Counted from the first letter of the stretch, positions 19,230-24,830 are shown. The stretch is DNA of 64,000 bases from Patescibacteria group bacterium (GCA_038064855.1 JBBTSE010000007.1:238097-302096); one strand, 5' to 3'. The notes: a model not told the origin generated them from the letters alone. Program-made: numbers and translations.

Positions 19230-19442
19230 CCCCCGATAATTTTGTGCTGCGTCCGTATTCAGTTTTTGCTTCTGTAGTCTATTATAGCAGATTTATACTC
19301 CTACTGCAAGAAACCCGAGCTATCTTTTTTACTTCTTTTTATTCTCCCCGTGCCTAAAGCAATGATCGCTACCCTCACGCGCGGGGACGATACATTTTTT
19401 GCCTTTGGTGTTTATGGCCTTGCAGATCTTCTTTGGCATATA

Positions 19443-20960: not shown

Positions 20961-21407
20961 CGCCGGATGTGCTTTCTGTAGGCGTTCTGCGTGTGCGGCA
21001 ACAAACGAGAACATACGATGTAGGAATTCACGACTTGAACGCCGAGCGCGAATATCGCTAAGTGCCGCGCCAAGCGCTGAGTGTAGTGCTTCAGCGCTTT
21101 CGTAGGAAAGCTTGTAATGCATCACGCGTTTGCCACCTCTTCGCTTGAGATCTTCGCGCGCCAGTGGCACAAGTCTACCGTCCTTGATGTCGGATGATTC
21201 GACTTTACGCTCAAACCTAAACACGAGCGCAGCCAGATCGTCGTCCGAGACATAGACCGAAACAGCACGGCCAGCTCCAAGGCGATTGAAATAGCGCATC
21301 GGCTTCTGGGAAAAGGAGAGGTCTTTACGCTGACTGAAGAGAGCCTTCGCGAGCTGCCATAAACCCCCAATATTCACTTTGAGTACCTCCAAAAAGTAGC
21401 CTAGCAC
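20958..21407 (-). CDS. Hypothetical protein
   Basis: 149-aa ORF with no recognised motif. Retained as the only long ORF here. Confidence 0.4.
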   Translation of the reverse strand: MLGYFLEVLKVNIGGLWQLAKALFSQRKDLSFSQKPMRYFNRLGAGRAVSVYVSDDDLAALVFRFERKVESSDIKDGRLVPLAREDLKRRGGKRVMHYKLSYESAEALHSALGAALSDIRARRSSREFLHRMFSFVAAHAERLQKAHPA

Positions 21408-21448
21408 GACTTGCCAAACAAAGAAAAGATTAGATAGTTTTACTCCCT

Positions 21449-22222
21449 TTATTTACACACAAACACGATCTCGTGGTTTTTCTGTGCGCCGAGGGCTACC
21501 TGTGTAGTTTTTTTGAGAAGCGTCTGGCCATTGAGTGTCACATCTTTGATATTGTTTGGAATTTGAAATGACAGATCGAGCTTGAGTGCGCGCAGGTAGA
21601 TAGCGCCGGGCTGAGTGCCGTCAATAGTGACAGTGACGGCAGGCAGTGTGGCGACTGCCGATCCCCCGCTCGCGATTGGTTCGCCAGGCAACTTGAGGCC
21701 GGGCAGTGGTATCGGCAGTGAGCCGGGTATCATGGGGCCGCAGCCGTTGTTTTTGATGGTCATACTCACGGATGTGGCCTGTAATACTACGGCGGCACCT
21801 ACGGCGACAATAGTTATCAGGCCAAATGGACCCTTGGCGGCGCCAAATATTTTACTCCATACAGATTTTTGATTGGGAACTTTTTGCCCTATCTCGTTCG
21901 CATAGAGTTCTGCCTCGACGCGCGAAATCTCGCTGCGCAAATTTTTCCAAAACTGTATGAGAAGCAACAATGCCCTTTTGCGCCCTTTCCTGTCTTCGGT
22001 ATCATCAGGCAAGTGTTCAGCGGCGAGTTCGGAGTATTCGCCATTATCAAGCTTGTCGAGATGAGAAAATGCCTCATCACACGCCTTGAGCTTTTCATCG
22101 ATACCCGCATGCATGCCGCCCACAAGATCGCGCACCGCGCTAAACTTTTCGCGTGATGTAGTGTCGCCTACAAACAGTGCGTGTGCGGCCTCAAGGCGCT
22201 TTTTGGCATCTTTGTAATCCAT
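21449..22222 (-). CDS. Hypothetical membrane protein, co-operonic with the Cys-rich mini-ORF
   Basis: Start at MDYKDAKKR, 5 nt after the mini-ORF stop. Soluble N-terminal domain, central TM (GPFGLITIVAVGAAVVLQA) and a Pro/Gly-rich C-terminal domain. Confidence 0.55.
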   Translation of the reverse strand: MDYKDAKKRLEAAHALFVGDTTSREKFSAVRDLVGGMHAGIDEKLKACDEAFSHLDKLDNGEYSELAAEHLPDDTEDRKGRKRALLLLIQFWKNLRSEISRVEAELYANEIGQKVPNQKSVWSKIFGAAKGPFGLITIVAVGAAVVLQATSVSMTIKNNGCGPMIPGSLPIPLPGLKLPGEPIASGGSAVATLPAVTVTIDGTQPGAIYLRALKLDLSFQIPNNIKDVTLNGQTLLKKTTQVALGAQKNHEIVFVCK

Positions 22223-22230
22223 ATAAAAAA

Positions 22231-22401
22231 TTATTTGTCTTCTGGTGCGGGTGCGTCGTGGTCTTGGCAACCGTTGTGCTTGCCATCAGTGCAATCGCAT
22301 GCCTCGAGCGACATGTTGTGCTTTGGGCACATCTCGGCGCCGCAAACTCCTTCTTTGTCTGATACCCCCTTGCAGGTGCCCGTACATATATAGTGTGTCA
22401 T
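22231..22401 (-). CDS. Unannotated 56-aa Cys-rich small protein; putative metal-binding
   Basis: Hand translation on the minus strand gives MTHYICTGTCKGVSDKEGVCGAEMCPKHNMSLEACDCTDGKHNGCQDHDAPAPEDK*: 7 Cys and 4 His in 56 aa. Absent from the ORF track, which appears limited to ORFs of at least 60 aa. Preceded by the conserved hairpin. Confidence 0.5.
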   Translation of the reverse strand: MTHYICTGTCKGVSDKEGVCGAEMCPKHNMSLEACDCTDGKHNGCQDHDAPAPEDK

Positions 22402-22406
22402 AACTT

Positions 22407-22432
22407 AAAAATCGCACAGAAGTGCGATTTTT
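22407..22432 (-). promoter_or_regulatory. Conserved hairpin AAAAATCGCAC-N4-GTGCGATTTTT, 5 nt upstream of the Cys-rich ORF ATG
   Basis: Second copy of the element at 19847-19873. Loops differ (TTCT vs CAAAA) while the arms and downstream context are identical. Confidence 0.55.
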
Positions 22433-22450
22433 ACAAACAGAGTTTCGAGT

Positions 22451-23101
22451 TTATTTCTTTTTAGCCTTTTTGGGGGCTGCTGCTTTTTTGGCTGGAGACT
22501 TCTTTGCCTCAACGATCTTGGGAGTCTCAGCTACGGGCTTTGCAGTTTCTTTTTGAGATACTGCTGGTGTCAATATACTGATGAGTTTATCGAGCTTGGC
22601 ATTGAGTGAAGCAAAATCTGCTTTGTAATCTGCTGGCTTTGAGCCACTTCGGTCAGTAAATTTGCGATCATCGAAGCTGCGCTTTGGGCGCTCATCACGA
22701 GCTGGGCCGTCGAGCGAGAGATCTCCGCCAGCACCATCGAAACAATCTTTGCAGAAAGTTGGGCGTCCACCGGTAGGCAAAAATGGTACTTCGCATTTTT
22801 TGCCACATTTACTGCAGACCGCTGCATACATACGACGCTCTTCAAAGCGTGAGTTACCACGATCGTTGCGGTCAAAAGTGCGTCCGCCACCATCGCGCTC
22901 GGACCCGCCGTCGCGTTCTTTATCAAAACAGTCACTGCAGTACACAGGACGCTCGCCGGTAGGGCGAAACGGCACTTGGCAGCGCTTGCCACACTTGCCA
23001 CACACAGCGTCATGCATCTGGGGACGGTCATTGCGTCCGCCAAAACTTCGTTTGCCGAACTTGTTGCCGCCGCCTCGGTTGTCTTTGTTGAAATAGGCCA
23101 T
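22451..23101 (-). CDS. Tandem CxxC-x17-CxxC zinc-ribbon protein with Lys/Ala-rich tail
   Basis: Two repeats of C-x2-C-G-K-x-C-x-V-P-F-x-P-T-G-x-R-P-x-x-C-x-x-C-F. The tail (KKSPAKKAAAPKKAKKK) is histone-H1-like. Confidence 0.7.
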   Translation of the reverse strand: MAYFNKDNRGGGNKFGKRSFGGRNDRPQMHDAVCGKCGKRCQVPFRPTGERPVYCSDCFDKERDGGSERDGGGRTFDRNDRGNSRFEERRMYAAVCSKCGKKCEVPFLPTGGRPTFCKDCFDGAGGDLSLDGPARDERPKRSFDDRKFTDRSGSKPADYKADFASLNAKLDKLISILTPAVSQKETAKPVAETPKIVEAKKSPAKKAAAPKKAKKK

Positions 23102-23150: not shown

Positions 23151-24830
23151 CTAGCCACGCTCCAAGAAAAGTCGCGCCAAACGGAGCTCCTCAAAGTCAT
23201 AACTCTCGCCCAGCATGGAACGGGCGGGGGCGAGCTGTAATGTGTCGCTATAACTGCGTATTTGTTCAAATGCTTCGCAGATTTTCTCAAATCGCGCGCC
23301 TGACGGCTTGAAATGCGCGCAGTCAGCCTCGATATCAATCAACCCTTTGCGCAAGAGTTTTTCCAAATGCTCGATGACCGTGCCTACGGTGACACCTCGC
23401 GTCTTGGCGATCTCGCGCGGAGTGAGCTTTTGCATCAAAAGTTCGCGTGTGGCCTCGTGAGTTGGTATTTTCTTTTTTGATATCTTCGCTGTGCCTTTTT
23501 CAATAGTACCGCCGCAGGCGCGGATAAAATTGTGATGCATGTCTTGTAGGTCGGGCGTGCTCATGGCGGTAAATACTTCGCGCGCTTGGTCTGATGAATC
23601 ATGAAATGCCGCGTCGTGCTCCAAAATACGGGGGTGTACCTGCAAAGATTTTTCGTTGTATCCACGCAGATACAAACCTGCGAGCGAGCGTACGCGAGAG
23701 AGCGCTACATATCCCTGCCCATATTCAAAGGTAGCTGAGAGATCCATGAGTGCTGCATCGAGTGACATACCTTGGCTTTTGTGAATGGTGATAGCCCACG
23801 CAAGCCGCAAAGGGACTTGGATGATTTTGGCGAGTGTCTTGCCGCCTTCTTCTACCGCCCACTCCATGGGAAATACTTTGATCGTCTCACCGGTGCCGAT
23901 GCGAACCTCGGGTAAACCGTCGTCTTCGGCAAAGCCGGTGACAACGCCAAGCGTGCCATTGAAAAAACCGTTTTCAAAATCATTTTTGGTAAACATCACG
24001 CGTGCGCCTTCTTTTAAGAAGAGCGTTTCGGGCGAGAGACACCCGCGCTTGAGTGAGTCAGCGAGCGCCTTGGAACCTTTTGTATGCATATCAAAAATGC
24101 GCGCGTTGCCGGGGATCTTTGAAAGTTCGCCTTTGTTGATATGATCGACATCGGCATTGTGCGAAAAGAGTTGCGGCATGACATCAACATTGTCAGGCAC
24201 AATGTTGCGCGCTTTTAAATGTTTGTGAAGATTTTTGGTCACCTCACCTTTGCGAATCGAGAGCAACATATCGAGAAATACCGGATCTTCTTGGCGATGC
24301 TGCTCGGATAGATAACAAGTCAGTAAACCCGCCGCACTCCATGATGGCGCTTCGAATGCGAAGCGTGATGCGCGGCCTCCGCGCGCGATGGGTGGGAGCT
24401 GAAAAAAGTCGCCTACAAAAATCACCTGCATACCACCGAAGGGCGCGGGGTTTCGTCGCAACGCCCGCAAGATCGTATCGATCATGCCGAGAGTGTGTGC
24501 GTCGAGCATTGAGATCTCGTCGATAATCAGCACATGAGTTTTGCGCGCGCGCTCGACGAGTTTTTCTTTTTGTGTCAAAAAATCAAGATCGTAGTCGGTG
24601 AGCGCGTCGCGGATACCAAGACCACTCCATGAATGAATCGTCATGCCACCGATATGGGTCGCGGCAATGCCGGTCGATGCGGTAATAGCCGGTTCAATAC
24701 CGTGCTCGCGCAGATACCCGATGTACTGACCTATAAGATATGACTTGCCAGAGCCCGGCTCGCCGGTGATGCATACATTGGCGCCGGTTTTTAATATAGA
24801 AAGTGCGGTGTCTTGGGTCATAAGATGCAC
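23151..24830 (-). CDS. AAA_30/PIF1-RecD-like DNA helicase with C-terminal HTH domain
   Basis: Walker A GEPGSGKSYL, Walker B VLIIDEISML, SF1 motifs (VFVGDFFQLPPI) and a C-terminal helix-turn-helix-like segment. Confidence 0.75.
   Translation of the reverse strand: MHLMTQDTALSILKTGANVCITGEPGSGKSYLIGQYIGYLREHGIEPAITASTGIAATHIGGMTIHSWSGLGIRDALTDYDLDFLTQKEKLVERARKTHVLIIDEISMLDAHTLGMIDTILRALRRNPAPFGGMQVIFVGDFFQLPPIARGGRASRFAFEAPSWSAAGLLTCYLSEQHRQEDPVFLDMLLSIRKGEVTKNLHKHLKARNIVPDNVDVMPQLFSHNADVDHINKGELSKIPGNARIFDMHTKGSKALADSLKRGCLSPETLFLKEGARVMFTKNDFENGFFNGTLGVVTGFAEDDGLPEVRIGTGETIKVFPMEWAVEEGGKTLAKIIQVPLRLAWAITIHKSQGMSLDAALMDLSATFEYGQGYVALSRVRSLAGLYLRGYNEKSLQVHPRILEHDAAFHDSSDQAREVFTAMSTPDLQDMHHNFIRACGGTIEKGTAKISKKKIPTHEATRELLMQKLTPREIAKTRGVTVGTVIEHLEKLLRKGLIDIEADCAHFKPSGARFEKICEAFEQIRSYSDTLQLAPARSMLGESYDFEELRLARLFLERG

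Follow-up and report, generated by a model that had tools for sequence, protein, structure and literature searches.

The open reading frame at 22231..22401 on the minus strand of the window (the whole 64,000-nucleotide stretch of DNA analysed here) is a genuine protein-coding gene. Its 56-aa product belongs to a family of small proteins, as yet without a name and probably zinc-binding, that extends across the ultra-small CPR/Patescibacteria and the DPANN archaea and is built on a core Cys6His2 ('HC6H') module. HC6H is best described as belonging among the small Cys/His metal-finger proteins, where it stands as a newly described and uncharacterised family of its own.

The mini-gene and its conservation

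Translation of the minus strand, from the A of the start codon at 22401 to the TAA stop at 22233-22231, gives a clean frame of 56 codons and exactly the peptide reported in an earlier note on this DNA, MTHYICTGTCKGVSDKEGVCGAEMCPKHNMSLEACDCTDGKHNGCQDHDAPAPEDK*. The note's residue counts were likewise correct, namely seven Cys (positions 6, 10, 20, 25, 35, 37 and 45) and four His (positions 3, 28, 42 and 48) with CxxxC, CxxxxC and CxC spacings. Predicted tryptic peptides of the mini-protein include GVSDKEGVCGAEMCPK and HNMSLEACDCTDGK. Given that 92 ORFs of at least 30 aa occur within 7 kb, a length of 56 codons is no more than chance would provide. The reality of the gene rests on comparative evidence, since its ORF length alone is unremarkable.

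A word-indexed search returned 7 close homologues with 64-93% identity, every one of them gene-called and 47-58 aa in length. The profile built from these 7 sequences was run against 1.84 billion cluster representatives and matched 465 of them (50%-identity clusters) at E ≤ 1e-3, with 174 at E ≤ 1e-10; nearly all of the 465 matches are 45-90 aa in length, and stand-alone members of the family are ~45-70 aa long. A further indexed search, using a profile of 118 sequences, yielded 213 proteins, and E-values of the family profile reach down to 1e-22.

The HC6H core is under strong purifying selection. By the Nei-Gojobori method on the 42-codon core, dN/dS between the window and the nearest genome (L012) is 0.07, with 2 nonsynonymous and 6 synonymous core changes, and the family median is 0.11 over 148 unsaturated pairs. 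The earlier note had named conservation with a synonymous bias as one of its checks, and both the abundant homologues and the value against L012 answer to it. The start of the protein is equally constrained: the ATG stands exactly two codons before His3 in 89 of 91 loci, and because its position is fixed, the N-terminus M-x-H-Y is itself conserved.

Loss or interruption of the frame in relatives, which the note had regarded as decisive against the gene, was not found, with a sole exception. In the Jorgensenbacteria genome GW2011_GWA1_48_11 (L067, 5001-5177), a single CAA-to-TAA change places an in-frame TAA at the conserved Gln21, after Cys20. This member is otherwise intact, and the TAA could reflect a pseudogene, an assembly error or read-through.

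The gene is also easily missed. It is uncalled in three assemblies (L095, L096 and L097) that represent this genome or a close relative, and since callers passed over it there, the label 'unannotated' is a fair one, even though the gene is called in one Logan assembly (L007/L098). The homologues, the synonymous-biased changes and the calls skipped in related assemblies together bear out the note's view of a genuine gene that is readily overlooked.

Ligand signature and taxonomic range

Across an alignment of 109 sequences, no column is invariant except H3, C6, C10, C20, C25, C35, C37 and H42, while Y4, G8, G12, L32 and D39 are conserved in at least 90% of sequences. The eight invariant residues follow a near-fixed spacing, H-x2-C-x3-C-x9-C-x4-C-x9-C-x-C-x4-H. 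This core pattern is matched by 254 of 261 family sequences, among which the individual ligand spacings are kept in 244-253 of the 254 members and His3 in 253. The window protein carries all eight ligand residues at exactly the family spacings, with the motif starting from residue 3, and is a member of the family.

The core module, H3 to H42, is encoded at 22276..22395 on the minus strand and is followed by an acidic C-terminal tail (residues 43-56; 22234..22275, minus strand) that is modelled with low confidence, with pLDDT values of 59 and 47 in its last blocks. The tail holds C45 and H48, which, like H28, are not conserved in the family; only 3 of 247 members have a further Cys in this part. 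Across the family, a median of 15 residues follow H42, and this tail consists of 20% Glu and carries a mean net charge of -2.6. The family core is likewise acidic (mean net charge -3).

The HC6H family is absent from Pfam, NCBIfam, the PDB and the literature searched. For the window protein, Pfam-A (2025 copy) and NCBIfam 20.0 return no family at E ≤ 1 and PHROGs v4 returns 0 matches, and Pfam on 118 family members gave just three isolated sub-threshold matches. Profile searches of the PDB produced chance matches only (a chitinase at E = 0.67; GLI fingers at E = 2.2), no description of the family was found in the literature searched, and the source names of its members are all 'hypothetical protein'.

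A taxonomic scan with one genome per species confirmed 173 loci, and 80 loci were kept. The confirmed loci are mostly from CPR, with additional ones in the Woesearchaeota and Nanoarchaeota (DPANN), and this restriction to CPR and DPANN is a notable trait of the family. Among the loci kept, the CPR carriers are Saccharibacteria, Paceibacteria/Parcubacteria, Doudna-, Kaiser-, Lloyd-, Nomura-, Azam-, Wildermuth-, Roizman-, Magasanik- and Jorgensenbacteria, Microgenomates, and Peregrini-/Peribacteria. The window locus comes from a groundwater Patescibacteria MAG, and the same locus is also found in Hainich assemblies.

On the Nanoarchaeota contig (L026), an archaeal GatD gene lies four genes from the mini-gene; because it is on the same contig, this is not a mis-binned bacterial sequence. 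Archaeal copies of the mini-gene have GGTGA-type Shine-Dalgarno motifs, while most bacterial copies have none. It should also be noted that a 1-Cys peroxiredoxin gene lies directly upstream of the Nanoarchaeota mini-gene (L026, 4362-4925). The mini-gene is not mobile or viral: IMG/VR viral contigs yielded no confirmed relative, and PHROGs no match.

CPR and DPANN account for a large part of microbial diversity, and the majority of the genes conserved in them are without known function. Against this background, HC6H is a compact and sharply defined family, with a fixed eight-ligand signature and at least 465 clusters at 50% identity, which callers often skip. Naming it would mend a recurring annotation gap in CPR and DPANN genomes. 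The small size of the protein makes it easy to test, and the fusions described below offer concrete leads to a partner.

The candidate metal-binding module

A zinc-ribbon-like double-zinc module is the best reading of the mini-protein and, in our judgement, a reasonably likely one. Eight invariant ligands in ~40 residues, with almost no hydrophobic core, are the signature of a two-metal finger, and the mini-protein is very probably metal-binding. The metal is most likely zinc, with the choice of Zn over Fe and the pairing of the ligands being guesses. The protein would consist of two parts, a ~40-residue module with eight invariant putative metal ligands and a disordered acidic tail. The eight ligands would hold two tetrahedral Zn(II) ions, one at Cys6/Cys10/Cys20/Cys25 and the other at His3/Cys35/Cys37/His42, and these ions would pin together a small fold of beta-hairpins, which would be zinc-ribbon-like and nearly devoid of a hydrophobic core. 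So folded, the module would serve as a structural interaction domain, neither a catalyst nor a metal store.

An AlphaFold2 model from the 109-sequence alignment has a mean pLDDT of 76.7, with 81-89 over residues 1-40 and less than 60 in the tail. Only short beta strands and hairpins are predicted, among them strands at residues 3-5 and 33-35, which suggested the tentative ligand pairing of the second site. The best structural neighbours of the predicted model are zinc ribbons, as weak matches. The closest known zinc-ribbon modules are Zn_Ribbon_YjdM (PF08274, the N-terminus of E. coli YjdM/PhnA) and the NOB1 Zn-ribbon (PDB 2con). A classical zinc ribbon has two CxxC knuckles, often CPxCG, which lie on two beta-hairpins and bind one Zn. 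The HC6H module has no CxxC pair, and its CxxxC, CxxxxC and CxC spacings count against the zinc-ribbon reading. Alignment by hhalign to E. coli YjdM, with a sequence that was validated by strong Pfam matches, gave a probability of <3%.

Fusion proteins bear more directly on the role of the module. In three Peregrini-/Peribacteria loci (L037, L045 and L087), an HC6H module is followed by a YjdM/PhnA domain (PF03831), at the position where canonical YjdM has Zn_Ribbon_YjdM (PF08274). Since canonical YjdM has a zinc ribbon at that position, the HC6H module has displaced a structural zinc ribbon. The invariant ligands, this replacement and the weak zinc-ribbon structural neighbours make the note's suggestion of a zinc-ribbon-type metal-binding peptide the best of those it had offered.

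Other fusions join the module to tRNA_bind (PF01588; L056), to an AAA_33/KTI12-like P-loop kinase (P0044 and P0073) and to DJ-1/PfpI (P0010), while transmembrane segments are joined to it in P0045, P0056 and P0100. The module is N-terminal in the fusions with YjdM, tRNA_bind, the KTI12-like kinase and DJ-1/PfpI. The partners are heterogeneous, each being present in only one to three sequences or loci. Furthermore, a stand-alone tRNA_bind gene adjoins the mini-gene in three lineages (L010/L011, L029 and L053). An acidic protein would be unusual as a nucleic-acid binder, and the neighbouring genes offer no hint of a partner.

Small zinc-finger proteins of comparable build are known from haloarchaea, namely the CPxCG-type micro-proteins exemplified by Brz of Halobacterium salinarum (PMC2253796) and by the Haloferax volcanii catalogue (PMC10117724). 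Like HC6H, these are stand-alone proteins of <70 aa that contain little beyond a Cys-based metal site and are often missed by callers, and they are thought to act via macromolecular interactions, as we propose for HC6H. In contrast to them, HC6H has no CPxCG motif, occurs in CPR and DPANN, and shows no detectable homology.

The same eight ligands could serve iron instead. The mini-protein would then be an iron-binding redox protein, with a rubredoxin-like Fe(Cys)4 or a Cys3His Fe-S site, acting as a small acidic electron carrier or oxidative-stress factor in organisms that are mostly anaerobic and have reduced genomes; we consider this unlikely. Rubredoxins resemble HC6H in being ~55 aa long and acidic, in having an N-terminal M-x-x-Y-x-C-T that is common to both, and in having a fold held by Cys knuckles. 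Acidity on this scale (core charge -3, tail charge -2.6) in a small protein recalls clostridial ferredoxins as well. However, the CxxCG and CPxCG knuckles of rubredoxin are absent from HC6H, which has two extra Cys and two His, and no rubredoxin Pfam match was obtained. Alignment by hhalign to a rubredoxin sequence gave a probability of 2.7%, over 7 residues. HC6H is not a rubredoxin.

Six Cys and two His could make two Cys3His sites, and here the comparison is with the CDGSH proteins of the mitoNEET type, which share the C-x-C ... D-G-x-H arrangement and the potential for Cys3His-type ligation. The C-terminal C-x-C-x-D-G-x-H of HC6H resembles the closing C-D-G-S-H of the CDGSH [2Fe-2S] motif, a likeness in favour of iron. 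The full motif, C-x-C-x2-(S/T)-x3-P-x-C-D-G-(S/A/T)-H, is nevertheless not present in HC6H: the window protein has only C35-D-C37-T-D-G-K-H42, in which the third Cys is missing and the distance from Cys to His is +5 versus +4. Pfam zf-CDGSH matches none of the 118 members, and HC6H is not a CDGSH protein.

Anecdotal support for a redox role comes from the peroxiredoxin gene upstream in L026, the one DJ-1/PfpI fusion, and a glyoxalase-family gene two genes downstream in the window. Against it, neither the window protein nor the 118 members have a rubredoxin, CDGSH or ferredoxin match in Pfam, bar a sub-threshold Fer4_RLI match at E = 0.0013, and there is no recurring redox partner among 146 neighbouring genes. 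The module also stands in for a structural zinc ribbon in YjdM, and other fusions join it to the non-redox tRNA_bind domain and P-loop kinase.

A third possibility, to which we assign a distinctly smaller chance than to an iron protein, is a metallothionein-like buffer or metallochaperone that stores or hands over Zn or Cu. The protein is indeed small and Cys/His-rich, and with SmtA/BmtA (PF02069) it shares its length (56 aa), ligation by both Cys and His, and a stretch resembling C-x-D-G-H. A ZIP-family transporter gene lies two genes downstream of the mini-gene in one lineage (L008, L009 and L046). In addition, His3 of nearly every member resembles an N-terminal X-X-His Cu/Ni site. Residue 2 varies, however, between T, A or S, with which Met removal is favoured, and K, E or I, with which it is disfavoured; because residue 2 can be of the Met-retaining as well as the Met-removing kind, a defined X-X-His N-terminus is not conserved, and such a site was set aside.

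SmtA has 9 Cys and 2 His in a Zn4 cluster, whereas HC6H conserves 6 Cys and 2 His at finger-like spacing. With only 6 conserved Cys in ~56 residues (~11%), a rigid spacing, and conserved structural Gly, Pro and Tyr, a folded finger is favoured over a thiolate cluster store. The bacterial metallothionein model of Pfam (PF02069) does not match the window protein, hhalign to an SmtA sequence gave a probability of 0.7%, and HC6H is not a bacterial metallothionein. Moreover, the ZIP gene is confined to one lineage, and no metal-homeostasis family recurs among the 146 neighbours. The 'metallothionein-like' label of the earlier note is therefore an unlikely one.

Returning to the double-zinc module, a bolder version can be imagined, which we hold to be doubtful. 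HC6H might be a new fold, either binuclear Zn or mixed Cys/His Fe or Fe-S, and the protein a lineage-defining, highly expressed factor common to CPR and DPANN, the two large radiations of ultra-small symbionts, that acts as a redox or oxidative-stress switch or as an adaptor working with tRNA-binding or translation proteins. The adaptor option draws on the fusion to tRNA_bind, the three cases of an adjacent tRNA_bind gene and the fusion to the KTI12-like kinase.

Neighbouring genes and the upstream region

In the window, the mini-gene is followed on the same strand by a gene for a 257-aa single-pass membrane protein (21449..22222, minus strand). The gap between the TAA (22233-22231) and the ATG (22222) measures 8 nt rather than the 5 nt given earlier, and the product has 257 residues instead of 258. 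It is 100% identical to NCBI 'AAB417_03545', and its family comprises 22 clusters of hypothetical proteins from a narrow Patescibacteria clade. Its structural model is of low-to-moderate confidence and yields only generic four-helix-bundle matches. After the membrane-protein gene, a consensus scan marks a terminator-like hairpin followed by TACTTTTTGG (21399..21419, minus strand), which might end a two-gene unit; terminator-like sites in the region number 3 versus a shuffle mean of 2.7, which is no excess.

The two genes are probably co-transcribed, in a narrow clade only. The 8-nt juxtaposition is present in the window, L007, L012 and L095. In contrast, the mini-gene is absent beside membrane-protein homologues of 57% and 50% identity (L092/L093 and L094), and in MAG CAYIZO01 the two genes are on separate contigs (L032 and L092). 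Given these distant homologues without a mini-gene and the separate contigs in CAYIZO01, the two-gene unit is recent and local. Upstream of the membrane-protein homologue in L094 there is a 375-nt GC-rich gap (2126-2500) with no called gene, Rfam match or mini-gene.

Across the family, the gene downstream of the mini-gene is often convergent or unrelated. When neighbours were clustered, with four genes per side at 91 loci, the largest cluster covered 6 of the 91 loci, some or all of them near-identical, and Pfam on 146 immediate neighbours from ~75 species found 126 families, none in more than 3. A conserved operon partner was rejected, there being no recurring neighbour in the 91 loci. The operon that the earlier note had proposed thus holds for the 8-nt pairing in L007, L012 and L095 and does not recur across the ~75 species.

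In one Patescibacteria lineage (L008/L009/L046, 5137-6555), the mini-gene is followed by genes for a TPMT-like methyltransferase and the ZIP-family transporter mentioned above, and a ribosomal protein L31 gene is nearby.

The same evidence bears on the note's suggestion of a redox-sensing leader peptide. On a leader-peptide reading, translation of a regulatory uORF would control the downstream membrane-protein gene and the product itself would have no role. Within the window, translational coupling is plausible, because the gap is 8 nt and the downstream gene has no Shine-Dalgarno motif, and the arrangement is kept in L012 and L095. However, the mini-protein sequence is under strong purifying selection (dN/dS about 0.1), the module is also a domain in fusion proteins, and the mini-gene is conserved by itself in hundreds of lineages, where the genes downstream are unrelated or convergent; no downstream gene is conserved in 91 loci. 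The distant membrane-protein homologues without a mini-gene and the separate contigs in MAG CAYIZO01 argue in the same direction. At the family level the leader-peptide reading is refuted, and we regard it as extremely improbable.

The earlier note had also described a conserved hairpin before the start. A strong hairpin is indeed there (22406..22433, minus strand). Its stem is of 12 bp, its loop reads UUCU and its 3' arm includes a U-run; only 4 nt separate it from the ATG, and it resembles a terminator of the upstream gene. Its folding energy is -15.3 kcal/mol (z = -5.2), and it is kept with compensatory changes in L012 (4965-4997; z = -4.2) and L032 (about 1141-1178; z = -5.3). It is lost in L095 (z = -0.2), so that conservation extends to three of four lineages. 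The hairpin was rejected as a repeated element, since it occurs once in the window, and the only Rfam matches in the window are two tRNAs.

What is kept in all four lineages, L095 included, is a promoter-like element that overlaps the hairpin (22408..22436, minus strand). It comprises a -35-like TTGTAA (22431-22436), a 17-nt spacer, a TG (22415-22416) and a -10-like GATTTT (22408-22413), with 6 nt to the A of the ATG. The arrangement TTG(T/A)AA-N17-(TGn)GATTTT-N6-ATG is common to the window, L012, L032 and L095, and the flanks of the four upstream regions are unrelated because the upstream genes differ. In the window, the -10 hexamer agrees with the consensus at 3/6 positions, and a consensus scan did not call the element. 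The block has an extended -10 geometry, would fire at or next to the ATG and would give a leaderless mRNA. The mini-gene would then have its own weak promoter immediately upstream, and the terminator-like hairpin in the promoter spacer would insulate it from the upstream gene.

The upstream region was surveyed across the family in 84 unique sequences, with other ORFs of at least 150 aa and random positions from the same loci as controls. A -10 box matching at least 5/6 positions at 5-11 nt before the ATG is present in 29/84 mini-genes, 13 of them with a TG extension, versus 92/586 (16%) other ORFs and 3.9% of random positions. A Shine-Dalgarno motif is present in 11/84 mini-genes versus 90/586 other ORFs. 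These figures suggest that leaderless mRNAs occur widely in these CPR genomes and are over-represented for the mini-gene, and leaderless-type promoters bear on how translation starts in CPR organisms. The near-consensus -10 boxes of the family read TATACT or TATAAT, often with the TG extension and with no Shine-Dalgarno motif.

Two further observations concern nearby Cys-containing proteins. The gene upstream of the mini-gene (22451-23101, minus strand) codes for a 216-aa protein whose two treble-clef zinc fingers have the form CxxC-x17-CxxC (PF23477 / TIGR04272); the linkers are rich in Gly and Arg, and the C-terminal tail is rich in Lys and Ala. The gene adjoins a Pif1-type helicase gene (23151-24830), and this pairing is conserved in related assemblies. 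Finally, a second small Cys/His-rich ORF of 36 aa, MPKKICKAINTKGKKCIVPAREGSDHCFRHGENKKK, is found at 19329-19439 on the minus strand. It is gene-called in L007, is represented in L012 (7242-7430) by a version of 62 aa that carries a further extension containing CxxC, and may be a second overlooked zinc-finger mini-protein.
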